Shown: positions 2,753 to 31,154, counted from the stretch's first letter. The stretch is 64,000 nucleotides of DNA from Promethearchaeota archaeon (GCA_016840085.1 JAEOTA010000055.1:1-64000), one strand, 5' to 3'. Numbers and translations: made by a program. The notes: generated by a model not told the origin, from the letters alone.

Positions 2753-2769
2753 TATTTAAAAGAAAAAAA
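2753..2769 (-). promoter_or_regulatory. T-rich BRE-position + TATA promoter motif upstream of radA
   Basis: Minus strand TTTTTTTCTTTTAAATA, ~60 nt before the ATG. Confidence 0.65.
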
Positions 2770-2818
2770 GAGAAGTAAAAAAGAGAAATACTATCTATTC
2801 TCCCAGATAAAAAATAGG

Positions 2819-3196
2819 TTATTCCTTAAGTATTAATTTTAGATTCTCAATATATTCTTTAGGAGAGATGCCATGTACTAATGCTTTATGAAGCATCCTA
2901 ATATTTACTTTTTCTATACCATTTTCTTCATAGATAGAAAGAAGATCTTTTTGAATTGCTTTTAAAATCTTTAACACAGAGAATTCAGAACGCTTATATT
3001 GACCAAAATATCCACCAAATGCGATAAATAAATTAGCTATAAGGTCAAGATCTTCTCTGGCAAATTTTTTATAACATTCAACGCACACAATTCCATAGTT
3101 AACTCCAGTTTGATAAAAAGTAGCTCTTTGTCTAATTTCTTTTCTACAGATAAAACACTTTATTTGATGATCATAATTTTGTGCTTTAGTTATCAT
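2819..3196 (-). CDS. Small Zn-finger protein
   Basis: CFIC...CVEC. Confidence 0.7.
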   Translation of the reverse strand: MITKAQNYDHQIKCFICRKEIRQRATFYQTGVNYGIVCVECYKKFAREDLDLIANLFIAFGGYFGQYKRSEFSVLKILKAIQKDLLSIYEENGIEKVNIRMLHKALVHGISPKEYIENLKLILKE

Positions 3197-3215
3197 GAAA
3201 ATTTATTAGTTTTAT

Positions 3216-3232
3216 TATATTTAAATAAAAAA
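3216..3232 (-). promoter_or_regulatory. T-rich promoter motif
   Basis: Minus strand TTTTTTATTTAAATATA, ~20 nt before the ATG at 3196 (leaderless spacing). Confidence 0.65.
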
Positions 3233-3282
3233 TTAGGTGTAGAACACCAAAAAAAGACGATAGAAATGAATTTAATCTTAGA

Positions 3283-3993
3283 TTAGAGCCATACAAATCC
3301 GGTATTCTCTATCTTATAGCACAGCTCCCATTGAGCATCTCCACAACTAATTTTCATCTTCTTTTTGTGACTATTGAACAATTTTAATAAATGAATGTGT
3401 AACACATCCAATCGACTATAGAGTTTATGAAGAAAAGGTCTTTGCTGTTCCGCTTTCATATCAAACGAGACTTCATGAAGCAGTATCAAATGAATCTTTT
3501 TTCTAATACAATATAACAATAACGGTGATAAAACCTCGTCATAAAATAAATCGATAATATTGGTACTATCTCTTATTTCTGAATGGGTAGAGAGTTCAAG
3601 TCGTAAATGATGGGAAATGTTGTCGATTACTATAAACTTTACATCAGGGGGTAATTCTGATTCAACATCTATAAAATGACGAAGTACTTGGGCTTGATCT
3701 CTATACGAATTAAAGCATTTTCCTTTTGGAATCACATATATATTACTTTCCAAATATTCTAGCTTTTCATTCCTTGCGTTAAAAAGTGAGTGTAATCGTT
3801 TTTTAGGGAATAATTCACTGGCTTGAACCCAGATACATGAGTGTTCATACGGTTTCTGTAAGGTAAGAAAATTACCTATTAAATAAAGGGCTAAGGTAGT
3901 CTTGCCTGTTCCTGACTCTCCTGAAATATTCACGATGATACTGCGAGAAATATGCGAAAATAACTCACTTAAGACTATAGGAGCTGAAATCAT
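3283..3993 (-). CDS. RadB/Rad51-paralog-like RecA-fold ATPase
   Basis: Walker A GESGTGKT, Walker B FIVIDNIS, no N-terminal HhH. Confidence 0.75.
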   Translation of the reverse strand: MISAPIVLSELFSHISRSIIVNISGESGTGKTTLALYLIGNFLTLQKPYEHSCIWVQASELFPKKRLHSLFNARNEKLEYLESNIYVIPKGKCFNSYRDQAQVLRHFIDVESELPPDVKFIVIDNISHHLRLELSTHSEIRDSTNIIDLFYDEVLSPLLLYCIRKKIHLILLHEVSFDMKAEQQRPFLHKLYSRLDVLHIHLLKLFNSHKKKMKISCGDAQWELCYKIENTGFVWL

Positions 3994-4350
3994 CTATTTC
4001 CCATCCAATAATTCAAGAATTTCTTCTTTTAGTCTATCTATTTCTTTTTCCCGCTGAGAAATAGGCTGTTCCTTATCTTTTTTTCCTGATGATGAAGCAT
4101 TAGTATTGAACAAGCCCTGAAGTATAAGTAGGGTTAATAATTCATTACTCTGAAAATTATATCCAGTAGCCTTTCCACTTAGGAATCTAAGTCCATTAGA
4201 GCCAAGACCGTGTTTTCTCAGCTTAAAAAACATAAAACCCGCAATAAATAAGACAATAATAATTATCCCAAATAGAGGATTTCGCTGATAAAACAATACG
4301 AATGCGACAATCAATATGAAATAACAAAACAATTTTGCCATATTATTCAC
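3994..4350 (-). CDS. Small membrane protein (2 TM, charged C-terminal helix)
   Basis: Two hydrophobic segments; abuts or overlaps both neighbours. Confidence 0.7.
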   Translation of the reverse strand: MNNMAKLFCYFILIVAFVLFYQRNPLFGIIIIVLFIAGFMFFKLRKHGLGSNGLRFLSGKATGYNFQSNELLTLLILQGLFNTNASSSGKKDKEQPISQREKEIDRLKEEILELLDGK

Positions 4351-5098
4351 CTGAAAATTTATCTATATCAGGAGCATTAACTTCCATATATTCACCATAT
4401 AATACCCCTACTCTTTTTTCTTCCCTATTTTTCCTTACATTTTTATAAATTGTATACCATAGCAGACAGATATATTTCAACACCACAAACACGACTCCGA
4501 TCAAGAAGTAATATATAAACTCAAGTGAGAAATCAATCGTAAATAAATCTACCAGTATCCATACCAATCCAAATGAAGAACATAATAAAATAACTTGAAA
4601 AAATGATTGTGAAGGATTTTTTTGAAACGTTACTGCTATATTTTTAAGATCTACTGTGGATGGTCTCACTCCTAATAATACCGACACACAGATTATCCCG
4701 CTCACTATCCTATAAAGCGGTTTTGCTGACATATCAAGGGCTATTTCAAGCAAAAAGAAAAATACAATTACCCCTACCAGTAAGGGAGCAATTCCAATTA
4801 ATAATGATTGAATAAATGAGACTTTTTGTGGTCTCTCTAGCGCAACTGATCCATGTGGATCTACCCTTCCAGTCATTTTATTTCTGTAATTTACCTCCAC
4901 TCTTTTGACTGGCACACCGGTAATAAGACATAATGTAGCATGCGCAGCTTCATGAATAGCAACTCCAATAAATCCAAGGACACTAAACGCGGTTTTATAT
5001 TTACCCTTGGTCTGATGATATAGCAATTCAAGGCCATACCCTACTACGAATGCTATTGGCAACCAAAAAAAGGTGAATACGAGGACTTTTTCAAACAT
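4343..5098 (-). CDS. M50/M50B-like intramembrane metalloprotease
   Basis: HEAAH within a TM helix, IAP motif, PSxxD, multiple TM segments. Confidence 0.7.
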   Translation of the reverse strand: MFEKVLVFTFFWLPIAFVVGYGLELLYHQTKGKYKTAFSVLGFIGVAIHEAAHATLCLITGVPVKRVEVNYRNKMTGRVDPHGSVALERPQKVSFIQSLLIGIAPLLVGVIVFFFLLEIALDMSAKPLYRIVSGIICVSVLLGVRPSTVDLKNIAVTFQKNPSQSFFQVILLCSSFGLVWILVDLFTIDFSLEFIYYFLIGVVFVVLKYICLLWYTIYKNVRKNREEKRVGVLYGEYMEVNAPDIDKFSGE

Positions 5099-5119: not shown

Positions 5120-5134
5120 AATATAAAGGAAAAA
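5120..5134 (-). promoter_or_regulatory. T-rich promoter motif
   Basis: Minus strand TTTTTCCTTTATATT, ~22 nt before the ATG at 5098. Confidence 0.6.
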
Positions 5135-5235: not shown

Positions 5236-5438
5236 GGGAACTATTGAGTATACTGGAAATAGATTACCACTGTTTAAACTGGTCGAGGATTCTCCCGCAA
5301 CCAGATCATGGTGGGGTGATGCACGAAACGAAAAAATTGATACATTTTGAAAATTCAGTTTTCGTGAAAGTATGGTAGAACGCTTTTCCTCATAGATCCT
5401 GATCCAGAGGATAATATTTAAAAGGCAAATAGGTTCCC
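5236..5438 (+). ncRNA. Candidate structured 5' leader RNA of the atypical TFB gene
   Basis: Closing stem GGGAACTATT 5236-5245 / AATAGGTTCCC 5428-5438 plus several internal stems. Confidence 0.4.
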
Positions 5439-5467: not shown

Positions 5468-6697
5468 GTGACCAAGGTTATGGCTTCATATAAAACACAA
5501 GAATTTGAGACCGGATTAGTAGGGCTTTCATCCCTAAAATGTGATATGTGTGGTTCGGAAGATATTGTTGAAGATATGGGCTCCTATATCTGTAGAGATT
5601 GTGGGATCGTGCTTGAGATCCGAAAATTGCAGTATGATAGGCCCTATAATACTGATATCATTCATCATTCTCCGCATGTAGGGGCTACCCAGGTAGGAAC
5701 CATTCGGGAGCGGCTTAGTTCTAAGCATTCCGTACAGCTCCAACGAATAAATAAAAAACAATTGGAACAGTCTAACTATGAGAATGTGAAACGAAAGATT
5801 GGGAAAAAGATTTCCGATCTGTTTACGAAACTTGAATTACATGACTCTGGAGCGTCCTTAAAGCAGTATATTTATACACAGTGTCTAAGAGTATATAATA
5901 GTTTTAGACCAGGAACGAAGTATAGAAGTGTTGAGAAGTTAGTTCCAGTGGTGATGTACTATTGTTTAAAGCTTAGAAGTATTGCGCGACCAGAGACCGA
6001 TTTTATAGATACTAGTGAAATAACCAAAAAGGAATTTAATCATTTTAAGATCCAAGTAAAGCATTTTCTTCCCAAGTATAATGAGTATAATCGGCAGATG
6101 GTTATTCTTCAAAAAATTAGTTATATCCAAGCCGAATTTAATTTGGATAGGGCATTTAATCTATTCACTAGGAAAGTCCTATATAAACTGTGGGGACTTA
6201 TCAAAAATACAAAAGATGATGTCGTAGCAGGGCTCTGTGCATCGATTTCGGCTCTATGCGCCTATCAAGATATATTAAATGTGAATTCCATTTGCAATCT
6301 GCTGGGTATCAGGATGAGTACCATTCAAAGCCAAGTGAAAAAGAATTTCTTTACTCGATTCAGAGTCGAGGGATTTGTAAGTCTGGTAAAATCTTCCGAC
6401 TTATTGGTAAAAATTATGGAAAAGTTAGGAATACTGGAAGGAGCAGAAGAACCTTGTGATATTGTGGAGATAAAGCTGGGACACGCAAAACGTATATTTA
6501 ACAATAATGATTCAATTGAATACTATCTATTTGCGATAAGAGATGAGGATAATAACGTAATGCTTGCCAAGTTAGACGTGTTTAAGCCATATCAGAGATT
6601 TGAGACGGTTGATAGTGTTGAAGTCAGTAACTTGCCACAATTCAATATGGTTTTCAGAACGTATTCAAAAGGCAAAGGTCCACCCTTTAAAAGTTGA
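5468..6697 (+). CDS. tfb: Atypical transcription factor IIB (TFB) paralog
   Basis: TFIIB Zn ribbon CDMC...CRDCGIVL, two cyclin-like repeats, divergent C-terminal HTH, extra ~90-aa tail; start GTG 5468 or ATG 5480. Confidence 0.75.
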   Translation: MTKVMASYKTQEFETGLVGLSSLKCDMCGSEDIVEDMGSYICRDCGIVLEIRKLQYDRPYNTDIIHHSPHVGATQVGTIRERLSSKHSVQLQRINKKQLEQSNYENVKRKIGKKISDLFTKLELHDSGASLKQYIYTQCLRVYNSFRPGTKYRSVEKLVPVVMYYCLKLRSIARPETDFIDTSEITKKEFNHFKIQVKHFLPKYNEYNRQMVILQKISYIQAEFNLDRAFNLFTRKVLYKLWGLIKNTKDDVVAGLCASISALCAYQDILNVNSICNLLGIRMSTIQSQVKKNFFTRFRVEGFVSLVKSSDLLVKIMEKLGILEGAEEPCDIVEIKLGHAKRIFNNNDSIEYYLFAIRDEDNNVMLAKLDVFKPYQRFETVDSVEVSNLPQFNMVFRTYSKGKGPPFKS

Positions 6698-6849: not shown

Positions 6850-9780
6850 ATGAACCTAAAAAAGTCGATTTTTACTATCATTATAGTATTATTATTTGTA
6901 CGTTCTATTATCTGTATTGCACCCCAGAAGAACAATTATTCCGAAGCTATGCAATATAACGATGTGAACAGCTCTCTTAAGACCTCCTCTACGACAAACG
7001 GGGAAATCATTCAGGAGGTCTTCTCTGCTAAAAACAGTCAATTCCAAAGCGAAGGATATTATACTCAAATGTTTGATTCTTCACTTCAAGCGACATATTA
7101 TGGGCTATATGTTTTAGATACGATTGGGAAATTAGGGGATATTAACACGACTGAAGTTCTCACTCATATCATGTCGTTTTATGATCCTGATTCAAAGTTG
7201 TTTATGGATAACTATTCCTATAGATATCTTGATACCGACTTTTCGCAAGTATATTATCCGTTAAGCACGCAATTAGAAGTGAATTGTTATGCGGTACTTT
7301 CATTAGACTTACTGGACTCTCTTAATTTGATCGATACTTCAGAGATGATCTCGTATCTATGGGAGTGTTATAATACTGATACTTCGGGTTTCATCGGGCA
7401 AAAATATGACACAAGTTTGGAAGAAGGATTTAAAATTTCGACCATGGATAATACTTATTTTGCGGTGTATGCCTTGGATCTTCTAATGGATGATTGGTCT
7501 CAACATGGTACTGAAAGAGATGAAATTGTCCAATTTATAAATGATCTACAGATATCCCAAGGATCAGGGTGGATGGTAGGGGGGTTTCTTAATGATATGA
7601 ATTCCTCATTAGATAGTATTAATCCCTTATTTGAGCCAAATCTCCTCAGCTCTTATTACTGCATTAAGACTTTGAAGCTATTTGGCATGGAAGATAGTAT
7701 TAACAAGCCTAACTTTCACTCCTTTTTAGATACATTATATGATTCTACCAACTATTATTTTAGAATATCGCAAATGGATTATGGAATTGAATATGCTAAT
7801 ATTGTCGCTACTGCACTTGGATTGGAGCTTTCCGATATTACTTCGTATCCAAATATCAACCGAGAGAATGTGATTACATTTTTATTAAATAATCGCAATT
7901 CGTGGGGAATCTGGGATTCATCGACCTTACTTGATCATCATGAGCTAATTGATACTTTTCAAATTGTGAGAGTGTTAAATAATACCGAAGAAATTTCACG
8001 ATTAAATGAAGGAGATAAATCTCAAATAAGCGGTGCGGTATCTAAATATTATAGCTACAATGGATTTGCGCCCTTATCAGAAGATTATATGACCATGGAT
8101 TTAATACATAGCATCGTATCTTCTTATAAATTATATGATAAGCTCTCAGATCTGGATATCAGCCAATTATATAGTGATATTACCTCTTCCTATAATCCCT
8201 TCGGTTCATGTCGATTTGTAGAATATATTACAAAAGGGAAGTCATTTACTGGCCTTCGCTCACGACCGTATGAATTCTATACTACAGGATACAAGAATTA
8301 TGTGGATGAGATTAACGTGCTTATTTCCCATAAAGCTACCTTTCATGCACTTACATCTTTACGCGAGATATTTAAACTTGATGATTTTTCCCTAAGCTAT
8401 GATCTTCATGACTTATTGGACGATATCATTGCTTCCCAGTTTCTAAATGACTCTTATTATAACAGTTTTGGGGGATTTACCTATTGGGAGCCCTATAATC
8501 CAATATTTTCTGAGTTCTTAAGCAAGAATGTATATTTCTTTTATACCTATTATGCCGTTCGAAACATGGAACTTTTAGGGAACTATCTCGGGTTAGGAGA
8601 TCTTACTCAACTATCCTTTGATATAGATGCCCTTTATTGTTTTATTGATAGAAAAATAGTAGAATCTGCTACTTATGTATATCTTGATCCTGGATATACT
8701 TCAAATGTAGAAGATATCTTGGAACAGACCTATTATATGATTTACATCCTTAAAGCGTTGGACTTATATAATAAGAATACTCAGAAGACCAAGAATTATG
8801 TGTTAGATCATCTGGATTATTCTAATATTAAAAATATCTATTATTCCTATAAAATCTCAGAGATTTTGGACCTAAACATAGAATTTAATTCGATACCTAT
8901 CCAAAATTTAATGAAAGCGATATATTCAGAGGATTTATACGAATTTTATCTAACTTCAGCCCATCAGGTAATTGATCATGATATTTTATATTGGATATGC
9001 GATTTGGCAAAAAATAGTGAAGTGATTATTAATATAGAATATCCAGAAGTTGTCTCATTAGGAGAATTTATACCCTTTACTGCGAATGTTCAAAATCTAA
9101 TCATCGATGATTTTGGCTCCTACATTACCCTAAAATGCATACATGAGAAATTAGGCACAATTTTGTTTGATAAGCTAGAAGGTAATGAATTTACCAAAGA
9201 TGTGTATGTCCCTATAGAAAAGGATTACTATCCTGAAATCGCTTTAAGGTTAGAGGCATATGAGGGATTTAGAAAACTTAGTGAACAAAATATTACCGTA
9301 TATACCGACTATAGCATAACTCATCACCTGACAACCGAGGTGATAAATAGTTCTGTATATCTTGAAATAAATGGAACGTATAAAACGAGTCTAAAAGAGT
9401 ATAACACGTCATACGGACAGGCATATTCGCTTGTCTATGGAGAATCGTTTCTGGAAGAAAAATTCTTCTATCGCCACGATTTCGAAAATTATAGTTTATT
9501 TTCCATGAGCTACGATGTTAATTTTAAATTCCGATATACGTTTGAAATTTATCTTTCAGACGGGATAAATAACGAATGGATATGTCTTGGCAATTATACC
9601 TTTTATAAAGGAGAAATCAAACCCGATGATGAGGTGCCTGACGATCCTTTTGATGGACATAATCCAAATTATGAGGATGAACTTTTACAAACGATTCCTG
9701 TTATCACTATATTAACCTTAATCCCTGGAAGTGTTATAGTACTTACTACGGTGAGAACTAAAAAATTAAAGAAACGATAG
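6850..9780 (+). CDS. Large secreted/membrane-anchored protein with prenyltransferase/squalene-cyclase-like alpha-alpha toroid repeats
   Basis: N-terminal hydrophobic segment, repeated GGF...TY(Y/F)AV..L.LL units, C-terminal TM and basic tail. Confidence 0.65.
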   Translation: MNLKKSIFTIIIVLLFVRSIICIAPQKNNYSEAMQYNDVNSSLKTSSTTNGEIIQEVFSAKNSQFQSEGYYTQMFDSSLQATYYGLYVLDTIGKLGDINTTEVLTHIMSFYDPDSKLFMDNYSYRYLDTDFSQVYYPLSTQLEVNCYAVLSLDLLDSLNLIDTSEMISYLWECYNTDTSGFIGQKYDTSLEEGFKISTMDNTYFAVYALDLLMDDWSQHGTERDEIVQFINDLQISQGSGWMVGGFLNDMNSSLDSINPLFEPNLLSSYYCIKTLKLFGMEDSINKPNFHSFLDTLYDSTNYYFRISQMDYGIEYANIVATALGLELSDITSYPNINRENVITFLLNNRNSWGIWDSSTLLDHHELIDTFQIVRVLNNTEEISRLNEGDKSQISGAVSKYYSYNGFAPLSEDYMTMDLIHSIVSSYKLYDKLSDLDISQLYSDITSSYNPFGSCRFVEYITKGKSFTGLRSRPYEFYTTGYKNYVDEINVLISHKATFHALTSLREIFKLDDFSLSYDLHDLLDDIIASQFLNDSYYNSFGGFTYWEPYNPIFSEFLSKNVYFFYTYYAVRNMELLGNYLGLGDLTQLSFDIDALYCFIDRKIVESATYVYLDPGYTSNVEDILEQTYYMIYILKALDLYNKNTQKTKNYVLDHLDYSNIKNIYYSYKISEILDLNIEFNSIPIQNLMKAIYSEDLYEFYLTSAHQVIDHDILYWICDLAKNSEVIINIEYPEVVSLGEFIPFTANVQNLIIDDFGSYITLKCIHEKLGTILFDKLEGNEFTKDVYVPIEKDYYPEIALRLEAYEGFRKLSEQNITVYTDYSITHHLTTEVINSSVYLEINGTYKTSLKEYNTSYGQAYSLVYGESFLEEKFFYRHDFENYSLFSMSYDVNFKFRYTFEIYLSDGINNEWICLGNYTFYKGEIKPDDEVPDDPFDGHNPNYEDELLQTIPVITILTLIPGSVIVLTTVRTKKLKKR

Positions 9781-9787: not shown

Positions 9788-9802
9788 TTTTTCCTTTTTA
9801 TG
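9788..9802 (+). promoter_or_regulatory. T-rich promoter motif (variant)
   Basis: TTTTTCCTTTTTATG, ~23 nt before the ATG at 9825; may also terminate the upstream gene. Confidence 0.45.
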
Positions 9803-13079: not shown

Positions 13080-13289
13080 GTCTAGGACTCTTTTCCTCGC
13101 CTTAGCAGATCTTCTAATAGCATCAGCGAATTCTTGTCGCAGAATTGTCTGATATACGGGATGGGTTTCGTTAAAAGGAATTTCTTCATTTCCGGTATAA
13201 ATAAATGCAGTATGAGGTAATCCAGTAAGCTGAGAAAAAGAGATCATGGCTTTCTTTAGATCGATAACTTTTTCTTCTGAAATCTCCAA
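13071..13289 (-). CDS. Small hypothetical protein
   Basis: 72-aa ORF, frame open up to ~13334; own promoter motif at 13382-13395. Confidence 0.55.
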   Translation of the reverse strand: MEISEEKVIDLKKAMISFSQLTGLPHTAFIYTGNEEIPFNETHPVYQTILRQEFADAIRRSAKARKRVLDLL

Positions 13290-13381: not shown

Positions 13382-13395
13382 CATTTAAAGAAAAA
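13382..13395 (-). promoter_or_regulatory. T-rich promoter motif
   Basis: Minus strand TTTTTCTTTAAATG. Confidence 0.55.
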
Positions 13396-21187: not shown

Positions 21188-21190
21188 GCT

Positions 21191-21841: not shown

Positions 21842-21858
21842 ATCCTACGCTGTTAAGC

Positions 21859-22698: not shown

Positions 22699-22701
22699 GA
22701 T

Positions 22702-25700
22702 ATGATAGAAGCTGAATTCTCAAAGAAGAAATATATCATGGAAAAGATACAGGATGATAAAGCGAAAAAGGATTATCTTGATATTTGGAGAACCGTCCCT
22801 CAGCTAAAGGATATTAATATCAGATTTTCGAGTATCAGAGCTTTATCACTTATACTCTTAGTGATATTTATCATGATTATAACATATAGTGCAGGTGTAG
22901 ATCAATTTATTGCGTTTAGCCTAGGAATACTATTCTTACTTTTCTTTATCGTTGCTTTTTATGATCAATGCTATACTTTTGTAAATCTCATTTCATTTGC
23001 CTTTAGAAAATCTTTCACGTTTAATCCTTTTTCCCACATTACTTTTTGGCAGAGAAAAGGAGAGCAATCTACCTTATTTATTACCAATAAAGATGATTTA
23101 ACTCATATTGCCTTACAACTATTTAAAGTAGAAGTCATCCCTGAAAATGTACATGAAACTACCAATACCTATATTAAAGCATTAAGTAATCTTGGAAAAC
23201 TAATACCGTTCACCTATCAGGTTGTTCATATTCCCGTGATTCACTTTGCTAAAGATATTAATCGGCAAGTTCAGTCGGGATCGCAAGAATCCTATAAGAC
23301 CTATATTTATTTTTGTATTCATAGTAGTAATCACGGGTTTCTGAGACAATTTAAAATAGATCTCTTACAAAATAAAATAAATGAATATCAATCCATCTTT
23401 CGAAATTTATTCGCCTCAAATTTTCATCATTTTCAAATCAGATTACTTTCAGGTAATGAGTTAATAAATGGCATCCGGACATTTGTCATGAAAGAAGATA
23501 TTCTTAACAAACCTTCTGAACATCCCCCTAGTACCCACAACAACGCCATAGGAGCATTTAAAATTTTATGTATCGCGTCTATGGTACTTTATATAGATAT
23601 ATTTCTTACTATTTGTGGTCTGTTTTTCTATGTTATTCCCATTAATTTTGGGGTGGTATTTTGTATCATCGGATTATGGTGGCGAGGCTTGTTATTTCAC
23701 AGTTCTCAGATGTTATTTCTTGACAAAACAGAGTGTAAGATTATATATCCCTTTTCAGATATTAGATTTTATTTTTATAACCGAATTCCTAACAGTCTAT
23801 TTCTTCATATCCAGAATCAGATGTTGGTAAATATTAAGATCAATAATTTATATGAGTATCGTCCTTTCCTTATTGCCCATGCAAATAAATTCACTCAATC
23901 TGCAATGATTCAAAAGGTGCCATTTGCCTATACAGTGTGTAATACCCCCATAAACTTGGACCAATTCGAGAAAAAAGAAATCTTTAAGCATCTTAATATT
24001 AAGACGCAGCATTGGTTTGATTATGAACGTAATTATATTTGGGATTATTATTCCAAGGAAAAGATCAGGAGAAAAGCTAAGGAGGTTGTCAAAGAGGGTG
24101 AGAAATGGGCCACTATGCGCTCTGGTATATGGAAGTCCATGCTCACCTTAGCAGTCTCAAATCGTATGTATACAAGACGAGTAAAAGTACGAGATATGCT
24201 TCATTTAGAACTTGAATTGAAGAATAAAAATAGCGCAATCGCCCATGCCTTTGTATCCAGCTTTAATGGGTTACGACTCAAGCCCCTTCAAACACGAAAG
24301 TTGATCTCCGGATATTTATGCTCTACTCTTAAGACTTATACATATCGATTAAGCGGTACACACTTACAATATTTAATATTACAGGGAAAGACCTTAAATA
24401 AGCTGGTTGAAATTGCAGACGACTATAAAAAAGGAGTAGAGACACAAATAGGGGCAGAATTTAATACTCCTTTACATCTGGAAAATTTTATTACTCTCGG
24501 CCATACCATTAATACAGAGATTCTAGAAGCGGAAGTTCCTTTTGGGCTTATGTTAGACCAGCTTAAGCAGCTATTAATCGTAAATGGAGCCTTTAATGAC
24601 AGAGAACATGCGTCCATGAAAATTGTTGCGGAATTAATACAAGCAAAGGTTCCTTCCCTAGTATTTGATTTCTCAGGCAGATGGTCGAAACTGATATCTT
24701 ATTTTGAAGGAACCCAATTCGAAAAAGAGCTGGTATACTTCAAGTTGGGGAGCTCTTTTAGTCTCGATCCCCTTCGATCAGACATCCCTTATGATCTTAA
24801 CAATAGCAAATATCAAGAGTTCTTATTTGACGTGTATGGGTTAGCGTTTGGAAAAAATAAAAGAACTGTTGAAATGTTTAGGAATACCATTTTAAAGAAT
24901 CCTGAAATGGATCTTCCTTCCCTTAATTTAGAGATCAGGACTCAAAGTGATTGGGAGAGACGACCGCCAGATCCTGTCCTAGGATCAATGTTTTCTGATC
25001 TCACTCAAGAGGATTTAACCTTATGCTTGAGTGCCACAACTTCTAAAATAAAAGCGTGTGATTTTATCAAGACAGATAAGACGGTAATCGTAGATCTCTC
25101 GATTACAAACGAGTTTAGGACTCAGTTATTTTTTGCATTCTTAATTCTTTCTAAGATTATTCACTATATTACCGTCAATGGTGAGTATCATCCAAAAATT
25201 ATCATCATGCCTACCATTGATATATTTTTCGATTCTCGATATATAACTACACAATCCCATTATGGAAAGATCGATAAATTCTTAGGGACTTTACAGCAAA
25301 AAGGGTTTGGGTTGATATGTTCGGCAAATCAAGTGCATTCTTTACACCAGAACGTGTGTACCTATTTCCCTAACATTATGGCATTTAAAGCTGTAGATAA
25401 TCGTGATATTATGCTCTTAAAGAATTTAATGAACCTGCAAGAACTGGTAGGAACCGGCTATTATAGTTCCAAACGGAATAATACCTACCAAATTGAGTAT
25501 CTTAAAAATCTTAATAAGTGCAGAGCATTAATTAAAAGAGGAGATATCTTTCAAGTCTTTCCCGTGCTATTAGAATATGAGGATATTATAAAGAAAAGAC
25601 CACTTCCCTATGAAGAGATTATTCCGTTTATGAGGGGGCAGGGGTATGACTTACGGGATGCCGAAAAGAAGCTTATGGAACATGCCCATCAGACTCTTTT

Positions 25701-26487
25701 TGAGATTGATTTGGGCAATTATATGGGTTATCTTGATGAAGTGAGGCACTTCTTAGAAGCTATAAGAAAAATTGAAAGAATAGGGAATGTATATAAGACA
25801 AAATTAAAAGAAGAATTATTGAAATTTATTACCCCAAAGGCTAAACAGAGAGGGGTGAAAAAAGAACATATCACTAAATTGCGTGATATAGTACTCGAAA
25901 TTCTTATTAAACATCGCTATTTGGTAGAAGATCATCCCCGAAAAGCGAGCGGTTCGCAGTCCATCCGTACCTCATATCGTGTTGGAGATCAATATGATAT
26001 TGCGTTGCAAGATTATTTTCAGGCACAGAAAAGACTTCATGGTGACATACACGTGGAGGTCATGGAAAAAGAAGCCGAGATGCCCGCTCCTTTTCAGCAC
26101 AGGAATTTTATTATCCAGAAAGGACGTCTGAAAAGGGCATTGCAGCGGGAATTATCAGATTTCTATCATGAGTTATATTTGATTTGGGAAGCACTGAAAC
26201 TCGGTCAGCACGAAAAAGCATTAAAAATAGAACATGATATAATTAGAAGATATCTTATCAAAGTATATACGCACTTTCATAATATAGACGATCTCGTTAC
26301 AAACAATCAATTGGATACATTTTACAATTTTCTTTGTTCCTTTGAGAACTTTCCCTTTACTAAGAAAGATCTACAAGATCATGCCAACACTTTTCGAATC
26401 ATAACATTCGAAAGGGATGATCCAGAGCAGTTATACTATACCATTAAAAAATTTTTTGAAGATATTCAAATCTTTATTTATAGTTAA
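22702..26487 (+). CDS. Large membrane-anchored VirB4/HerA-like protein with degenerate Walker motifs
   Basis: ITLGHTI...LLIVNG, SLVFDFSGRW, FSLDPL, TVIVDLS, KGFGLICSANQ in HerA/VirB4 order; no GKS/T and no DE. Confidence 0.6.
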   Translation: MIEAEFSKKKYIMEKIQDDKAKKDYLDIWRTVPQLKDINIRFSSIRALSLILLVIFIMIITYSAGVDQFIAFSLGILFLLFFIVAFYDQCYTFVNLISFAFRKSFTFNPFSHITFWQRKGEQSTLFITNKDDLTHIALQLFKVEVIPENVHETTNTYIKALSNLGKLIPFTYQVVHIPVIHFAKDINRQVQSGSQESYKTYIYFCIHSSNHGFLRQFKIDLLQNKINEYQSIFRNLFASNFHHFQIRLLSGNELINGIRTFVMKEDILNKPSEHPPSTHNNAIGAFKILCIASMVLYIDIFLTICGLFFYVIPINFGVVFCIIGLWWRGLLFHSSQMLFLDKTECKIIYPFSDIRFYFYNRIPNSLFLHIQNQMLVNIKINNLYEYRPFLIAHANKFTQSAMIQKVPFAYTVCNTPINLDQFEKKEIFKHLNIKTQHWFDYERNYIWDYYSKEKIRRKAKEVVKEGEKWATMRSGIWKSMLTLAVSNRMYTRRVKVRDMLHLELELKNKNSAIAHAFVSSFNGLRLKPLQTRKLISGYLCSTLKTYTYRLSGTHLQYLILQGKTLNKLVEIADDYKKGVETQIGAEFNTPLHLENFITLGHTINTEILEAEVPFGLMLDQLKQLLIVNGAFNDREHASMKIVAELIQAKVPSLVFDFSGRWSKLISYFEGTQFEKELVYFKLGSSFSLDPLRSDIPYDLNNSKYQEFLFDVYGLAFGKNKRTVEMFRNTILKNPEMDLPSLNLEIRTQSDWERRPPDPVLGSMFSDLTQEDLTLCLSATTSKIKACDFIKTDKTVIVDLSITNEFRTQLFFAFLILSKIIHYITVNGEYHPKIIIMPTIDIFFDSRYITTQSHYGKIDKFLGTLQQKGFGLICSANQVHSLHQNVCTYFPNIMAFKAVDNRDIMLLKNLMNLQELVGTGYYSSKRNNTYQIEYLKNLNKCRALIKRGDIFQVFPVLLEYEDIIKKRPLPYEEIIPFMRGQGYDLRDAEKKLMEHAHQTLFEIDLGNYMGYLDEVRHFLEAIRKIERIGNVYKTKLKEELLKFITPKAKQRGVKKEHITKLRDIVLEILIKHRYLVEDHPRKASGSQSIRTSYRVGDQYDIALQDYFQAQKRLHGDIHVEVMEKEAEMPAPFQHRNFIIQKGRLKRALQRELSDFYHELYLIWEALKLGQHEKALKIEHDIIRRYLIKVYTHFHNIDDLVTNNQLDTFYNFLCSFENFPFTKKDLQDHANTFRIITFERDDPEQLYYTIKKFFEDIQIFIYS

Positions 26488-26499
26488 AGAGGATATAAT

Positions 26500-26865
26500 A
26501 TGGAAAAGCAGAAATCACAAGATGAGATGTTATCTAATTCATTAGAGAAAGTAATTTTTAATAAAGAAGAGTTGGAAAATTTAAAACGGAATATAGATCG
26601 TCTTAGCAAAAGTCAGTGTAAGCCTATCGAATTAAAAAGGCAAATACTGGATTACCGAGCTGATTTATTAGAGAGAATACAACGTGTATTTCAGTTCTAT
26701 CACAATTCTTTTATTACAAAATCAGATAGTAAAGAAAAACAGAAAGTATACACTGAACTTAAAGAAAAAAATGAACTATTGGAAAAAAAAGATAAAATAT
26801 TTGAAGATCTTGGTAAAAAAATCTCTACCATCTGTCAAAAAATAAGAATCCAATTACAGAATTAA
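26500..26865 (+). CDS. Small coiled-coil protein
   Basis: K/E/L-rich heptads; GAGGA SD. Confidence 0.65.
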   Translation: MEKQKSQDEMLSNSLEKVIFNKEELENLKRNIDRLSKSQCKPIELKRQILDYRADLLERIQRVFQFYHNSFITKSDSKEKQKVYTELKEKNELLEKKDKIFEDLGKKISTICQKIRIQLQN

Positions 26866-26957: not shown

Positions 26958-26975
26958 TTTTTTCATTTAAATATA
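26958..26975 (+). promoter_or_regulatory. T-rich promoter motif
   Basis: TTTTTTCATTTAAATATA, ~48 nt before the ATG at 27023. Confidence 0.55.
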
Positions 26976-27022: not shown

Positions 27023-28959
27023 ATGTTATCACAAGAAACGGTTTCTGACTCTAAAATATCATTAAATGAGTTGTTCCCTACTTACACAAATCAATTCTTA
27101 CAACCCTTTAAAGATATTATTGATCCGAATATCCATGAGGATATGTGCCTTGATTTTAATATAAGTGATAGAAAACATACCCATAAAAAAAGCCCAATTT
27201 TAAGATTAGCACATCCGGAGGATGCCAAAGAAATAACAGGAATTTATAAAGAACTGTACAATGGGACATATCCTTATAAGGAAATGGAAAATGTTCAAGA
27301 AGTTAGAAAGATGATTATGGATCCAACAATACAATGGATAATATATCAAGATCCATCTTATAATATAGCAGGATGCATAACTTTTGTCTTAGATTTTGAG
27401 AACAAACGGGGATATATTCGAGGTTTTATGCTTAGAAAGGAATATCAAGGATATGTTGATATCACTAAAGCTATGATTGGATCTATGATAAGCATGTGCC
27501 ATAAATATAAAGATAAGATTTATACATGGTTTGTTGAAAATCGAACTGCTCATGCAAAATCCCAATATTCAATGTGGGTTTGTGGAATGGCTCCTCTAGG
27601 GTTTTACCCTAATAAGGATATTTTTCTAGGAGAAGTAGAATCCGATTTAATGCAGGTTTTATATGATGAGAGGGCATTACGCCAATATAGATCCCCAAAA
27701 ATTCCTACAATAATTCCTGCTGCGAAAAAGTGTTATTTATACTCTCATGAACGATATTATTTAGGAGAGTATAAAATAAATTCTCCTAAAATTACTCTTG
27801 ATTACAAGAAGATAAAAACTTTACAGTCAAAATTAAAAAGAACTATACAAAAAGATGATTTTGGGTATGAAACTATTACATTTTCATTTGAGAATATAAA
27901 ATCTTCATTTCAATTTCTATATACTCCAACAGTATCAAATTTTGAAAAAACTAGATACAAAGTCGCATCTTTAGAAGAATTATTTGTGTTTGTCCAGGAA
28001 TTTATGAAATGGAAAAAAAAATTAGGAGTTCGTTATTGTGAAGTATTTATCTCAGCTTACCACCCTGCACATCAACAAATTTTTTATGATGTGGGATTGG
28101 TTCCACGAGGTTATGTGCCTAGTTGGATGTTTAATAATAAAGATGGTGTGTTTGAGGATTTTATTCTCTTTAATTGGTATAATGGACAAATTAATGACAA
28201 AATGCAGCTAATCCAAGAAGGATGGGCTCTGCTTAATGTTTTTCAATTTGAGAGTTCACATTCTATAGCTAAGGAAAAAAAATTTTCAACTAATTCTATT
28301 AATAATAGGACCATAGAACTAAAAAGGAAAATTAGATGTGGTTTAACATCGCCTATAGCATTAAAATCATTTTTAATGGGAGGATTATTTTTATACTTAA
28401 CATTGATAGGCGTTAGTATATTGGTTGCTCAACTAGTAGGAGATTTTTCACTTTTAGCCCATACAATCAGTTCTCTTGGTTCAAATCGGATTACTCCTTA
28501 TCCATCTCTTTTTAATGGAGCATGTATAATTGGGGGGTTCAGTACTATTATTTTTAATATCTTATGGTTTAACCAAATATCTTCTTATTTTATCTATTCT
28601 AAAAAGAGATCTTCTATTTTTACTTCTGGTTTTTTAACGGGAATCATTGGAAGTGTATGCTATATATTGGTTGGAATTTTTAGTCTTGATCGAGCAGGGC
28701 CAAACGGGATCATACATGGAATATTTGCAATCTTAGCATTTACAGGATTTGTATCTTCAATTTTTATATCCAGTCATTACCTTGTTTTTTACTCACACCA
28801 GACTCCAAAATTCATCGGAGTAATTGGATTAGTCGGACCTCTGTTTGCTTCATTTTTCAATTGTATTATTATAACCCATTTTTAGAATGGATGCTGTTAT
28901 TTTCCATTCTTACAGCTTTAATTCCTCAATTTTTCTTAGTTAAGATTTCATTAACATAA
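27023..28959 (+). CDS. Tandem GNAT-like domains fused to a DUF998-like membrane domain; frameshift near the 3' end
   Basis: LRLAHPEDAKEI GNAT start; HTISSLG and H..FA..AF DUF998-like motifs; called ORF stops at 28885 but the -1 frame continues PFLEWMLLFSIL... to 28959. Confidence 0.6.
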
Positions 28960-28985
28960 CAATCTTTGGTTCTATTATATTATTT

Positions 28986-29798
28986 TTATTTTTTATATAA
29001 GCCAAAGAAAATAATCAGAAAAACAAAAATGTCTACTAATTCAGCTAATATGATATACATTGCTACTTCCCCCAAAATGTTCTGCATAAGAGGTCGAAAA
29101 ATGTTTGAAAACAAGTAAAAAAGAAATCCAAGTGTTAAGATCCCGGGTTTAACTACGGTAAGACGTTTTAATCTGTAAGCTAAGAAAAAAATGTATACAA
29201 TTCCTATCAATGAGGGGATAACAATAGCAGGTAAAATCATACCCATAGTTGTATTATTTGGAGCTATTATTACTACAATGGATTCAACACAGACAATAAT
29301 TAGTATTATTGCAACTCGCAATTTATTCATATATTCTTTATCTTTTAACTTTTGAAACCTATCTTCTAATCTAAAAAAGATAATTTCAAGACCTAGGTAA
29401 ATTAAAGGTGCTACTTCGAAAATAATTATAAAAAATCTGAATTTTAGAAATAGTAAGACTATATCATCGTTAAATGTAAAAAAGGTAAGATCCCAAAGTA
29501 TATCGATTGCTTTTCCAAAAATTAGAATAAGGAAGAACAATCCTAACAAGAAAGGGATATCAGATAAATATTGTGCTTCTTGTTTAAACCATTTATGAAA
29601 TAAATAAAAAACAGTGATAATTAAGATTATAATTCTGATGGAAATTATCAAAACAACTTCAAATGCTCCTTCATAGTCTTGAAAAGCTTGAATAATAAGT
29701 GCCCAATTAATATAATAGAATATACTAACCCCAATAATGGCTAAAGTAACACAAATGATTAGACTTAATTGATATAGCCCTTTTTTTGATATTCCCAT
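28986..29798 (-). CDS. Multi-pass membrane protein
   Basis: About 7-8 hydrophobic segments. Confidence 0.75.
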   Translation of the reverse strand: MGISKKGLYQLSLIICVTLAIIGVSIFYYINWALIIQAFQDYEGAFEVVLIISIRIIILIITVFYLFHKWFKQEAQYLSDIPFLLGLFFLILIFGKAIDILWDLTFFTFNDDIVLLFLKFRFFIIIFEVAPLIYLGLEIIFFRLEDRFQKLKDKEYMNKLRVAIILIIVCVESIVVIIAPNNTTMGMILPAIVIPSLIGIVYIFFLAYRLKRLTVVKPGILTLGFLFYLFSNIFRPLMQNILGEVAMYIILAELVDIFVFLIIFFGLYKK

Positions 29799-29911
29799 AT
29801 ATATTGATATAATCTAATAAATTTAAATTGAACCAAAAAAAAAAATTACAAATCCAAATTAAAAATCAATTTTTATCAAAAAGATAAGATCTCATTTTTT
29901 TATTGACATTA

Positions 29912-31054
29912 TCATCTTCGCCTTTTTCGAAATAAATTTTTAATGGTCTCTATTTGACTCTTATTTGGATCCTTTTCAATTTGATTATGAATTAATTTTA
30001 AAAACTCAAATGGAGAAGTACCAATTTTTTCTAAAAATTCAATTACTTCTTGTTCTTTAAATTTATTTTCAAGAATTAATGGTGCTACAATTCTGAGAGT
30101 TCTTAACCATTTTTTCCGCGATTGAGGATTTTGACGTACTAGTTCTGCATACTGATAGGCATATAGAATACCTCCATATCTGTTGAAATCATAAAAAGTA
30201 GCAGCATGAACTACATTGCAATTAGTTAAAAGTGGATCAGCATGTCCTTTTTTAATGTAATTCTTAGATTCTACTAGATTAATTACATCTTCTTCTCTAT
30301 AAGGAATTACATGATAGGGTAATATTACTCTTGGAATTCTTCCATGATTAATATCTTCCTCTGTTAAATAACATTTTCTATCCTTATCATCAAATGTAGG
30401 ATTATCTATTATCTCTGGTCTCCATTTTCTTATGATTTCTTCTTGTGGTATCTCAAAAAAGTACCTGAATATTTGATCTGGAGAATATCCAAATAATACA
30501 TATGGTATTTCATTTTTTATAGCTTCTTTTACGATAATACTGTGGATTAAGTCTGAGCAATAATCACATATATATCGAGTTAAAAAAATATCATTAGATT
30601 TATGGTTTAGAAAAAGGTATCTGTAAAGTTTAGTAAATGTAGTAGCCACATTTTCGACCATTATATGGTCCACTTGTATCTTGCTTAATGTATCTTTTAT
30701 ATTTTCCTTAGCAATATTTGTCATATAACCTGTATCTGAAGTTACTGCTAATGGTTTCAAATCAAGCCCATTAACCAAGTAATCCAAAAGGGCTGTGGAA
30801 TCTTTTCCGCCTGAGTAACCAACTACACATTCATATTTCACTTTCCTATGATTATTTGCCATTTTCAATATTATGTTATTCCAATCAATAATTGCATTTT
30901 GCCTTCTCTCAGTATTAATTATTGAACGGGACCAATTAACATTTTTATGATCTGGATTAGCACAAAACTCGCATACACCATCTAAATTAAGGTGCACACC
31001 TAGAAATCCATCAGGCAAAATGCAATTTCCACAGATACTTTGTTGTTCAATCAT
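29912..31054 (-). CDS. PP-loop N-acetyl-sugar amidotransferase-like protein
   Basis: N-terminal CxxC...CxxC, VVGYSGGKDS, CDYC. Confidence 0.75.
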   Translation of the reverse strand: MIEQQSICGNCILPDGFLGVHLNLDGVCEFCANPDHKNVNWSRSIINTERRQNAIIDWNNIILKMANNHRKVKYECVVGYSGGKDSTALLDYLVNGLDLKPLAVTSDTGYMTNIAKENIKDTLSKIQVDHIMVENVATTFTKLYRYLFLNHKSNDIFLTRYICDYCSDLIHSIIVKEAIKNEIPYVLFGYSPDQIFRYFFEIPQEEIIRKWRPEIIDNPTFDDKDRKCYLTEEDINHGRIPRVILPYHVIPYREEDVINLVESKNYIKKGHADPLLTNCNVVHAATFYDFNRYGGILYAYQYAELVRQNPQSRKKWLRTLRIVAPLILENKFKEQEVIEFLEKIGTSPFEFLKLIHNQIEKDPNKSQIETIKNLFRKRRR

Positions 31055-31100
31055 ATACTCTCTTTATCCTCACAGTTTTTAATTGTAAACAAATTGAGAG

Positions 31101-31154
31101 TATATAAAGAAAAAAATATGCAAATTACACCGAATCACTTTTTTCTTTATATAT
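31101..31154. promoter_or_regulatory. Back-to-back pair of T-rich promoter motifs
   Basis: Minus 31101-31116 TTTTTTTCTTTATATA and plus 31139-31154 TTTTTTCTTTATATAT, each facing a divergent gene. Confidence 0.7.

Follow-up and report, generated by a model that had tools for sequence, protein, structure and literature searches.

A distinct T-run core-promoter class in one island of a Lokiarchaeia genome, and a divergent TFB paralog that may read it

Introduction

In archaeal promoters, the BRE that lies upstream of the TATA box is purine-rich. Alternative TFB paralogs are known, but only subtle differences separate their target promoters from those that the main TFB uses, and thus how such a paralog chooses its promoters is still an open question. 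Among the TFB and TBP paralogs of haloarchaea, the helices are closely related, and the regulons overlap and are dispersed across the genome. In Sulfolobales, TFB3 is associated with a DNA-damage regulon that includes the Ups pili and Ced DNA import, and it is reported to act through its zinc ribbon and coiled coil, in concert with further promoter-bound factors (Feng et al. 2018, PMC6101594). A cell-division regulon of Sulfolobus acidocaldarius TFB2 has been described by Kuo et al. (bioRxiv 10.64898/2026.09.06.749720), and TFB homologs are encoded by viruses and mobile elements of Asgard archaea (bioRxiv 10.1101/2021.07.29.453957).

The DNA considered here is a stretch of 64,000 nucleotides (the window) from a Promethearchaeota archaeon. 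A sequence-only reading of this DNA had proposed that a T-rich motif, placed directly before a TATA box, defines a dedicated promoter class of one gene cluster, which we refer to as the island. A full-text literature search found no description of this promoter class or of the island.

Results

T-run promoters of the island

The island occupies positions 1463 to 32362 of the window (~31 kb) and encodes a spare RadA paralog, an AAA ATPase, Hef-like and Hel308-like helicases, a membrane-protein operon and a small RNA, along with several small uncharacterized zinc-ribbon proteins and a TFB-like protein. No TBP of its own was found in the island, an absence that fits the ordinary TATA box of its promoters. 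All 13 correctly oriented copies of the motif listed by the sequence-only reading are present, each within 4 nt of where that reading had placed it and each pointing at a downstream transcription unit. Its claim that the motif precedes nearly every unit also holds, as T-run promoters head 13 of the ~16 transcription units.

The element consists of T5-7 followed by C (sometimes A or CC). It directly abuts a TATA box of the form TTTAWATA and occupies the 6-8 bp of the BRE position; both site inspection and EM place T at -2 to -7 and C or A at -1 relative to the TATA box. A purine- or A-rich BRE is therefore not what is found at these sites. The TATA box itself conforms to the TTTAWATA type, since TTTWWA is present in all 13 sites and is mostly extended to TTTAWATA. 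The features are listed below; gene calls in this analysis are crude, gaps run from the TATA hexamer to the ATG, and the relatives-only matrix is one built solely from ten related genomes, with a pass threshold of 12 bits.

2756 to 2769, minus strand: T-run promoter TTTTTTTCTTTTAA of the RadA paralog (gene 1463-2692), 14.2 bits with the relatives-only matrix; gap of 62-63 nt, Shine-Dalgarno sequence in the leader, and motif at a gap of 56-62 in 8 species
3220 to 3232, minus strand: T-run promoter with an A junction, leaderless 125-aa gene (2819-3196); gap of exactly 23 nt in 8 species
5122 to 5134, minus strand: T-run promoter with a CC junction, leaderless operon of 4343-5098 (membrane protein), 3994-4350 and 3283-3993 (AAA ATPase), divergent from the TFB-like gene; gap of 23 nt in 10 of 10 species
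5407 to 5425, plus strand: canonical-type promoter of the TFB-like gene, a purine-rich BRE GAGGATAAT and then ATTTAAAAGG; conserved block
5468 to 6697, plus strand: divergent TFB/TFIIB paralog of 409 aa, identified by homology, fold and a conserved altered helix
6787 to 6800, plus strand: T-run promoter with an A junction (A or G in most orthologs), 976-aa gene (6850-9780); kept in 10 species at a gap of 44-58
9788 to 9800, plus strand: T-run promoter with a CC junction and a weak TATA box, TTTTTA, leaderless operon of 9825-10436, the Hef-like helicase (10423-12546) and a DUF1922 protein (12546-13079); gap of 23-26 nt across species
13384 to 13395, minus strand: T-run promoter of a small conserved ORF (13071 to ~13334); in the G005 ortholog the motif lies 47 nt before the ATG, and here the same codon is CTG, 49 nt after the motif
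13815 to 13827, minus strand: T-run promoter of a 98-aa gene (13435-13731); motif at the ortholog in 4 of 9 relatives, with crude start calls
19128 to 19141, minus strand: T-run promoter of an 86-aa zinc-ribbon ORF (18769-19029) and the Hel308-like helicase (16200-18656)
19342 to 19353, minus strand: T-run promoter with an A junction, conserved structured small RNA (~19160-19317); back-to-back with the next promoter
19365 to 19378, plus strand: T-run promoter of a five-gene operon (19391-26865; HhH protein, membrane proteins), kept in 8 species; a second ATG 27 nt downstream fits a leaderless start
26958 to 26971, plus strand: T-run promoter with a CA junction, DUF998 membrane gene (27023-28885); A junction kept in 5 of 6 species, the sole exception being G023 with T
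31103 to 31116, minus strand: T-run promoter of a 380-aa gene (29912-31054), 19.5 bits, gap of 48
31139 to 31151, plus strand: T-run promoter of a 385-aa gene (31205-32362), 19.2 bits, kept in G016 and G023; back-to-back with the preceding promoter across a 22-nt spacer

The last of these marks the right edge of the promoter class, as no upstream region between 32.4 and 64 kb reaches 12 bits. An Rfam search of positions 1-34000 matched no family. Three gene labels of the sequence-only reading need revision: its "radA" is a RadA homolog, though a spare paralog; no protease domain was found in the 251-aa gene that it had called a protease; and its "RadB" has only generic AAA ATPase hits. It had correctly noted that the NosD gene lacks the T-rich motif, and this NosD-like gene is an insertion in this genome only.

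Leaderless TATA spacing, which the same reading had inferred for several of the sites, is borne out by gaps of 23 nt (3220), 23 nt (5122), 24 nt (9788) and 27 nt to the second ATG (19365), which match the genome-wide peak at 23-26 nt. A transcription start some 24-27 nt downstream of the TATA box is supported only indirectly, without start-site data: the gap of 23-24 nt at three leaderless units is kept in 8-10 species and equals the genome-wide leaderless peak.

The genome has a GC content of 29.5%, and one could imagine that the motif is simply a chance product of AT-rich spacers. Consistent with this notion, a degenerate regex for the motif occurs in 565 copies genome-wide, half of them within coding DNA, and its density per kb is about equal in divergent (0.17), convergent (0.19), tandem-sense (0.21) and tandem-antisense (0.16) spacers. 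The regex alone is thus no promoter signal outside the island, and it was rejected as a genome-wide promoter mark. The island copies nevertheless stand out. The pattern TTTT[TC][CA]TTTWWA occurs 13 times in the 2427 nt of island intergenic DNA, whereas 1000 dinucleotide-preserving shuffles of the same spacers gave 0.56 +/- 0.73 copies and never more than 4; for strict matches in the whole window, the count is 13 versus 2.3 in whole-window shuffles. In a sliding 31-kb scan of the 4.68-Mb genome, the interval C50:2000-33000 ranks first for promoter-positioned copies (8 of 78 strict, 11 of 113 loose), and the next independent intervals hold no more than 4. Moreover, the motif recurs at orthologous positions in 8-10 species. 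The chance explanation is therefore already refuted, and the T-run motif of the island is not a composition effect. The caveats attached to the sequence-only reading hold in part, as they do apply to the degenerate regex outside the island.

Conservation of the promoters in related genomes

The expectation that the motif would be conserved upstream of orthologs is met. At the first genes of operons, it is found at a constant gap (23, 24, 60-62 nt, etc.) in 8-10 species even though the flanks do not align, and operon-internal genes score less than 9 bits with the T-run matrix, nearly all less than 6. Gene-specific variants of the junction (A versus C) and of the TATA box are conserved across species as well; for example, the weak TTTTTA of the Hef-like operon persists in 8 of 9 species under comparison, G016 being the exception. 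De novo EM on the island upstream regions yields atTTTTTTcTTTAtATAT in ~86% of regions, and randomly seeded EM over 218 upstream regions from 10 other species yields TTTTTTCTTTAAATA in ~45%. The relatives-only matrix scores at least 12 bits in 9 of the 15 upstream regions of the island, as compared with 33 of 3270 elsewhere (Fisher p 1.7e-14, odds ratio 147). These tests are independent of one another; together, the two EM results, this matrix and the orthologous promoters of fixed spacing support a dedicated promoter class of one cluster, as originally proposed, with co-regulation of its members remaining undemonstrated.

Oligo-T is an archaeal intrinsic termination signal. The T-run might accordingly act mainly through DNA structure or insulation, wherein a rigid oligo(dT) tract excludes archaeal histones and also terminates read-through from the upstream gene, while canonical TFB initiates without sequence-specific BRE contact. 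At eight of the 13 sites a co-directional gene does end 8-93 nt upstream, the small RNA stops at the T7 run of the promoter that follows, and T7 runs are denser in convergent than in divergent spacers (4.75 versus 2.69 per kb). This proposal accounts neither for the confinement of the class to one island nor for the tract's invariable place on the sense strand, where a conserved C (an A at particular genes) forms the junction. It also gives no reason for the spacing, which is constant relative to the TATA box and ATG and not to the upstream stop codon. Furthermore, 5 of the 13 sites are in divergent spacers without an upstream co-directional gene; the site at 5122-5134, for this reason, cannot be a terminator. 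We regard the structural explanation as quite unlikely, and the assignment of the sites as intrinsic oligo-T terminators was rejected given the five divergent sites and the spacing fixed to the downstream ATG. Termination of read-through could be a second role of the other eight.

The order of the island genes is conserved across the genus, wherein the island is accessory; the four genus genomes that lack the TFB-like gene also lack the RadA paralog. This distribution, together with a DDE transposase at 71-1378, the rapid evolution of many island genes (30-47% identity between congeners) and the TFB homologs known from Asgard viruses and mobile elements (bioRxiv 10.1101/2021.07.29.453957), raises the possibility that a mobile element or provirus, equipped with its own TFB and promoter type, gave rise to the island or still constitutes it. 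We consider this origin very unlikely. No relative of the TFB-like factor was found among IMG/VR viral contigs, and a Pfam search of the island found no integrase, capsid or replication genes. Also, the genus-wide gene order and the 73-92% identity of the RadA and Hel308 copies look like vertical descent. A mobile source would in any case concern origin only, and is compatible with the explanation that we favor below.

Promoters elsewhere in the genome

Outside the island, TATA boxes that point at genes have A at -3 to -5 with frequencies of 0.56, 0.47 and 0.45, versus 0.38, 0.34 and 0.37 in the antisense control, and the top-ranking promoter-oriented word genome-wide is TTTAAATA, with A-rich words upstream. 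The purine-type example offered by the sequence-only reading, GATAAAATTTTTAAATA, is present at 43682-43698 on the minus strand. This canonical BRE tendency was obtained from anchored counts and oriented word counts instead of EM, which, when run genome-wide for the canonical promoter, returned merely fuzzy A-rich or T-rich motifs. A position profile relative to start codons gave only a Shine-Dalgarno signal and no sharp TATA position, because 5′ leader lengths vary. tRNA promoters were discarded as a reference set, as the 7 tRNAs that ARAGORN found with the settings used were too few.

The sequence-only reading would have failed had housekeeping genes carried the motif equally often; the housekeeping RadA, Hel308 and Hef homologs elsewhere in the genome score at most 2.8 bits and lack it. 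The near-matches that it had reported outside the cluster exist and are weak, the best reaching 10.1 bits at 48178. About 30 non-island upstream regions also reach at least 12 bits, so the motif is not unique to the island, and these regions are probably mostly chance matches. A five-copy mini-cluster on contig C3 was rejected as an extension of the regulon, as it has no homology to the islands.

Two further genes were considered for the regulon and not added to it. The XPB gene has the T-run motif, and no ortholog of it was present in the 22 genus relatives searched. The RPA gene has a conserved T10-AAATAA promoter without the C, and its membership in the class is uncertain.

A divergent TFB paralog encoded in the island

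In the TFB-like protein, a zinc ribbon is followed by two cyclin repeats; the helix at residues 282-291 is altered (RMSTIQSQVK), and ~110 aa at the C terminus form an extra domain. Establishing its homology required profile-profile and fold comparison, because PDB searches with the single sequence and with a profile matched no chain. The Pfam TFIIB family likewise had no match in the protein, and Pfam Zn_Ribbon_TF scored 23.9 bits, below the cut-off of 29; the ribbon residues C25, C28, C42 and C45 are invariant in 18 TFB-like sequences, so that the four-Cys pattern is intact. Alignment to canonical TFBs by hhalign spans 244 columns (residues 23-291) with a probability of 96.9% and an E value of 1.3e-10. 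The structural model has a pLDDT of 82-92 over residues 100-320, with low confidence (<50) in the B-reader/B-linker region (residues 48-78). In a Foldseek search with this model, each of the 30 best matches was a TFIIB, a TFB or a Brf, with 1AIS and 1D3U among them. We conclude that the protein is a true TFB homolog with two cyclin-fold repeats. A truncated activator of the TFB3 type was rejected as its identity, since both cyclin repeats and the helix-turn-helix are present.

In the BRE-reading helix, RMSTIQxQVK replaces TEVTLRSRYK, and thus the canonical pattern (TEVT-hydrophobic-R-x-R-Y-K) is not met. Residues S284, Q289 and V290 are invariant, and Q287 is at least 90% conserved, in 18 orthologs that are only 40-47% identical overall, and the altered helix is the most conserved stretch of a fast-evolving protein. 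Human TFIIB residues V283 and R286 reportedly contact the BRE (Tsai and Sigler 2000); their equivalents in the TFB-like factor, mapped through 1D3U and human TFIIB, are S and Q.

As the sequence-only reading had noted, the tfb gene itself lacks the T-rich motif, and it has a conserved purine-BRE promoter instead. Twelve TFB-like genes share the conserved upstream block GAGGAAAAG-GTTTAAAA, and in all 12 upstream regions the T-run matrix scores less than 2 bits. One of the 12 genes is a second paralog, at C9:66256, whose helix is similar and which is not surrounded by T-run promoters. G006 has retained only the TFB-like gene and its two neighbors, and each of these neighbors carries the T-run motif.

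In a sister family (G050, G055), the helix differs again, as (T/S)ASTVY, and the only 3-4 clear promoters have the form T8-10 G[CT]TTTTATAA. The factor is present there in four genomes only, two of these on short contigs. Any co-variation of helix and promoter in these sequences is only suggestive, because genomes and clear promoters are few and the EM result is fuzzy.

Discussion

We think it likely, if well short of certain, that the 13 sites form a separate core-promoter class, and that the island TFB paralog reads the T-run/C element and switches the island on as a unit. This reading builds on what is observed: a motif that is restricted to the island and conserved at fixed spacing, and a TFB homolog whose helix is changed and itself conserved. 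Host TBP would bind the TATA box of the T-run promoters, and canonical TFBs would fit the T-run poorly, leaving the island silent. Once the paralog was made from its normal purine-BRE promoter, its changed helix would read T-run/C, set the direction of transcription and recruit RNA polymerase, turning the island on in the manner of an alternative sigma factor. Where transcription starts, that canonical TFB leaves the island silent, that the paralog binds the T-run and that the genes are co-regulated are all inferences, drawn without transcript, start-site or binding data. That the paralog is the reader is probable on the basis of co-location, co-occurrence and the changed helix.

The island-specific class could also be real while its T-run/C is read by another protein, the TFB paralog having a different role. 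Candidates include an activator or repressor encoded in the island, such as a small zinc-ribbon protein or the DUF1922 product, and a host factor bringing canonical TFB to a weak BRE. The evidence from EM, the relatives-only matrix and conservation supports the class itself and does not tie the helix directly to the T-run; several small zinc-ribbon proteins of uncharacterized function are encoded in the island; and the C9 paralog stands without T-run promoters. A precedent is Pyrococcus TFB-RF1, which is reported to be an activator at weak-BRE promoters (PMC5937170). The element, however, abuts the TATA box exactly in the BRE position, which is the place of TFB in 1D3U, so that little space would remain in this groove for another protein. 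The exceptional conservation of the helix and the minimal module of G006, a TFB-like gene with two T-run promoters, also speak against another reader, which we hold to be unlikely without dismissing it.

Direct reading by the island paralog would have a broader implication. We rate at only slightly better than even the chance that Lokiarchaeia have an orthogonal initiation code, wherein the RMSTIQxQVK helix specifically reads a pyrimidine BRE that canonical TFB rejects, and one protein switches on the whole island. If so, production of that protein would activate the spare recombination genes together with the membrane genes and the small RNA. The element is crisp, inverted in composition and limited to the island, and the factor that accompanies it has an altered but conserved helix; thus TFB-BRE specificity becomes directly testable with few proteins and oligonucleotides. 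The motif is also a sequence tag for finding members of the program in any related genome. The island points to a switchable second apparatus for recombination or DNA handling in Asgard archaea, of unknown trigger and purpose.

Compared with the canonical core promoter of the Pyrococcus woesei TBP/TFBc/DNA complex (1D3U), the island promoters have the same TTTAWATA box, a distance of ~24 nt between the TATA hexamer and the start codon of leaderless genes, and an upstream element that abuts the TATA box in the BRE position, with a TFB homolog of one zinc ribbon and two cyclin repeats as candidate reader. They differ in that T5-7 C is pyrimidine, whereas canonical BREs, including those of this genome, favor A at -3 to -5. 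The helix differs as well (RMSTIQxQVK in place of TEVT(L/V)R(S/N)RYK), and the island factor has its additional C-terminal domain.

The TFB3 regulon resembles the island in that a TFB paralog is tied to DNA-repair or DNA-exchange genes, including membrane proteins, for which joint activation has been proposed. In contrast to TFB3 as reported (PMC6101594), the island factor is a full-length protein that has both cyclin repeats and a helix-turn-helix of its own. Its targets are gathered in a single island and have in common a sharply distinct element in the BRE position. S. acidocaldarius TFB2 is likewise a full-length paralog acting on a defined promoter set, which is driven as a wave; its targets have near-identical TATA boxes and similar BREs, the spacing differs, and tfb2 is its own target (10.64898/2026.09.06.749720). 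By contrast, the composition of the island element is inverted, and the promoter of the island factor is of the canonical type. Haloarchaeal TFB and TBP paralogs, as at the Halobacterium hsp5 promoter (PMC2396416), also use duplicated general factors for global or condition-specific gene selection; in the present case, one paralog, one island and one crisp motif occur together. The logic is also that of a bacterial alternative (ECF-type) sigma factor encoded beside its regulon, where a dedicated factor with changed promoter-reading residues has a matching non-standard element and is co-located with its targets. The proteins and promoter architecture are unrelated, and unlike most ECF sigma factors, the island factor appears not to drive its own promoter.

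Evidence for a distinct class of island promoters

The sequence-only reading had listed 13 copies of a motif (T5–7 followed by C or A) that abuts the TATA box in the BRE position, and all 13 are present, each directed at a downstream gene or RNA. Anchored at the TATA box, the 13 sites share the consensus TTTT[TC][CA]TTTWWA, mostly extended to TTTAWATA. The island's intergenic DNA (2427 nt) contains 13 matches, compared with 0.56 ± 0.73 (maximum 4) in 1000 dinucleotide-preserving shuffles of the island's own spacers. When the whole genome was scanned with a sliding 31-kb window, counting only copies directed at a start codon no more than 150 nt away, positions 2000 to 33,000 of the island's contig (C50) ranked at the top, accounting for 8 of the 78 strict copies and 11 of the 113 loose ones, and no independent window held more than four promoter-positioned copies.

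The source assembly has 89 contigs (4.68 Mb, 29.5% GC) and, judged from its relatives, represents a Loki-type Asgard archaeon. A simple codon-usage ORF picker called 4216 genes (83% of the genome), so start codons are approximate. Run with plain settings, ARAGORN recovers only seven tRNA genes, although genome completeness is rated at 98.8%; tRNAs that are split or contain introns likely escape detection. The reservation that the genome's AT-richness might account for the motif is correct for the genome at large, where a degenerate regular expression finds 565 strict copies, half of them in coding DNA, at nearly equal density in divergent, convergent, tandem-sense, and tandem-antisense spacers. 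It does not hold for the island, and the promoter-class claim is therefore made for the island only.

De novo motif discovery gave concordant patterns. EM on 15 island upstream regions recovered atTTTTTTcTTTAtATAT in about 86% of them. For the relatives, we collected 23 to 40 kb around the orthologous TFB-like gene from ten congeneric genomes, whose factors are only 40 to 47% identical to that of the window (with the exception of genome G024, 74%). EM with 40 random seeds on the 218 upstream regions of these relatives yielded TTTTTTCTTTAAATA in about 45% of regions, wherein the T columns reach 0.98 to 1.00 and the C at the junction with the TATA box 0.64. A matrix built from the relatives only and applied to the window's genome scores at least 12 bits in 9 of 15 island upstream regions versus 33 of 3270 elsewhere (odds ratio 147, Fisher p = 1.7e-14), and no upstream region between 32.4 and 64 kb of the window reaches this value. 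Of the 38 promoter-positioned matches of at least 14 bits at all positions, 9 fall in the island, a stretch covering 0.66% of the genome. We regard the existence of a distinct, conserved, and island-restricted core-promoter class as well supported, with only slight doubt remaining.

Conservation and targets of the sites

Island gene order is syntenic across the genus. Upstream of orthologs, where conservation had been suggested as a check, the motif stays at a fixed gap from the ATG of the first gene of each operon, while the flanking sequence on both sides is unalignable.

Conservation of the T-run motif at orthologous promoters (gap, TATA hexamer to ATG)
125-aa gene: gap 23 nt; 8 of 8 species
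251-aa membrane gene: gap 23 nt; 10 of 10 species
203-aa/Hef-like operon: gap 23–26 nt; 8 of 9 species
RadA paralog: gap 56–62 nt; 8 of 8 species
976-aa gene: gap 44–58 nt; 10 of 10 species

Gene-specific variants are conserved as well, namely a junction A at the promoters of the 976-aa and DUF998 genes and a weak TATA box (TTTTTA) at the Hef-like operon. For genes inside operons, scores stay under 9 bits and in nearly all cases under 6. The motif heads 13 of about 16 transcription units, a count that holds because two apparently orphan sites, 13384 and 19128, do have targets. Further features of this region are as follows.

13071–13334 (−), small conserved ORF behind site 13384, signature IPF.E.HP.YQTIL..EFAD
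13912–15906 (−), NosD/beta-helix gene
18769–19029 (−), uncalled 86-aa ORF behind site 19128, followed by the Hel308-like gene
19160–19317 (−), conserved structured RNA of ~130 nt behind the 19342 promoter

The first ORF overlaps the end of gene 12546–13079 by 9 nt, and its start may be non-canonical or lie further downstream, because the ATG of the relatives reads CTG here. The 86-aa ORF has a CPLC zinc-ribbon-like start and is conserved as coding sequence in G024. The RNA, whose 3′ end coincides with the T7 run of the promoter that follows, carries compensatory changes in 8 of 25 predicted pairs (four species) and has no Rfam match. The NosD-like gene lacks the motif, as had been observed, and is an insertion that, of the eleven genomes compared, is confined to this one.

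Promoter or terminator

Oligo-T tracts can also act as terminators, a caveat raised for these sites. A role as terminator only is rejected, since five sites (5122, 19342, 19365, 31103, and 31139) occupy divergent spacers, where no upstream gene runs in the same direction, and the spacing is fixed relative to the downstream ATG. The caveat survives as a possible second role at eight sites, which could additionally stop read-through from the preceding gene. The proposed leaderless TATA spacing is supported indirectly, in that the 23 to 24 nt gap equals the genome-wide leaderless peak for TTTWWA.

Ordinary promoters of this genome look different. Genome-wide, the promoter-oriented word that ranks highest is TTTAAATA, preceded by A-rich words, and the A fraction at −3, −4, and −5 of gene-directed TTTAWATA is 0.56, 0.47, and 0.45, versus 0.38, 0.34, and 0.37 in antisense orientation. 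Island promoters carry T at these A-enriched positions. The housekeeping RadA (C78), Hel308 (C79), and Hef homologs (C83, C47) score 2.8 bits or less with the T-run matrix. Thus, the class marks the island's spare copies rather than repair genes generally.

Back-to-back divergent pairs occur at 31103–31151 and 19342–19378, where 22 and 11 nt, respectively, separate the two promoters (TATAAAGAAAAAA...TTTTTTCTTTATA), and pairs offset by 23 to 38 nt recur in the islands of all relatives. Two initiation complexes may compete at such pairs.

Several similar motifs lie outside the island. The RPA gene (C81:66105–67829) has a T10-AAATAA promoter of 10 to 13 bits without the junction C, conserved in 16 of the 18 genus genomes compared (orthologs L077–L096) in addition to this one; it is possibly an off-island class member or only a look-alike. 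An XPB helicase gene (C22:3334–4653) has a 14.4-bit motif at gap 53, and a search of 22 genus relatives gave no ortholog. A mini-cluster in gene-poor DNA (C3:12182–15046) has five copies of 12 to 18 bits, including a back-to-back pair (12895/12921), and no homology to the islands. Repeated short-contig elements (C10:53–365, C71:60, and C27:9511) carry exact TTTTTCTTTATA copies 45 to 47 nt before small genes and may represent a multi-copy element.

A TFB paralog as candidate reader

The island's TFB paralog would be the protein that reads the T-run promoters.

5468–6697 (+), divergent TFB-like gene
5407–5425, its promoter block

By Pfam, this gene has only a sub-threshold TFIIB zinc-ribbon match, and neither sequence nor profile searches of the PDB gave a match. 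An hhalign comparison between a profile of 18 orthologs and the genome's three canonical TFBs gives a probability of 96.9% (E = 1.3e-10), with a match that spans the zinc ribbon and the two cyclin repeats. The AlphaFold model has pLDDT values of 82 to 92 at residues 100 to 320, and in Foldseek its 30 best matches, among them P. woesei 1AIS and 1D3U, all belong to TFIIB, TFB, or Brf, with low TM-scores.

The second-repeat helix-turn-helix reads RMSTIQSQVK in place of the canonical TEVTLRSRYK. M283, S284, Q289, and V290 are invariant in 18 orthologs, and T285 and Q287 are kept in at least 90% of sequences with about 45% identity elsewhere. Aligned through a canonical TFB with 1D3U and human TFIIB, human V283 and R286, which we take to be BRE-contacting residues, are replaced by S and Q.

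The TFB-like gene itself had been noted to lack a T-run promoter, and indeed the motif is absent upstream of all 12 genes examined, which instead share a conserved GAGGAAAAG-GTTTAAAA block of the purine-BRE type. The genome encodes one standard two-repeat TBP (C53:10283–10804) and one odd TBP-domain protein, both outside the island. In addition to the standard TBP, a single TBP-domain repeat is seen at C19:36612–36833 within a 442-aa open frame. The lack of a TBP in the island fits with its ordinary TATA box.

Four genomes of the genus that are 81 to 95% complete (G004, G008, G013, and G022) have neither factor nor RadA paralog, and G006 keeps only the factor and two neighboring units, both with the motif. 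In G009, a fragmented assembly, the RadA paralog has a 19.6-bit motif at gap 62 and the factor was not found. A second divergent TFB paralog of the window's genome (C9:66256–67503; 42% identical to the island copy, helix GMSTIHAQVK) has the same conserved purine-BRE promoter type and no T-run promoters in its surroundings. Extra factor copies are also seen in G023 and G001.

Within the sister family, G050 carries a homologous island (identities to the window: RadA paralog 64%, Hel308-like gene 36%, factor 22%), and the factors of G050 and G055, both single-contig genomes that may stem from cultured strains, show a third helix type, (T/S)ASTVY(S/T)(H/R). Three or four leaderless promoters of G050, a genome nearly devoid of the genus-type motif, read T8–10 G[CT]TTTTATAA. 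EM gave a fuzzy result on the small number of sequences available. These data hint, without establishing it, that helix and junction base changed jointly. Overall, the TFB paralog is the most economical candidate for the reader, an assignment that we favor by a modest degree in the absence of binding data.

Origin and comparison with known systems

At the contig start, immediately left of the island's RadA paralog, lies one further feature.

71–1378 (+), DDE transposase

No mobile-element hallmark genes other than this transposase were seen, and IMG/VR contains no relative of the factor. An old mobile origin of the island is nevertheless not excluded, because TFBs are encoded by Asgard viruses and mobile elements (bioRxiv 10.1101/2021.07.29.453957).

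A full-text literature search found no description of the T-run promoter class. The targets of Sulfolobus TFB2 differ from those of TFB1 mainly in BRE-TATA spacing (bioRxiv 10.64898/2026.09.06.749720), and the island system does not match this arrangement. Nor does it match the TFB3 system, which is reported to act via its zinc ribbon and coiled coil (PMC6101594).
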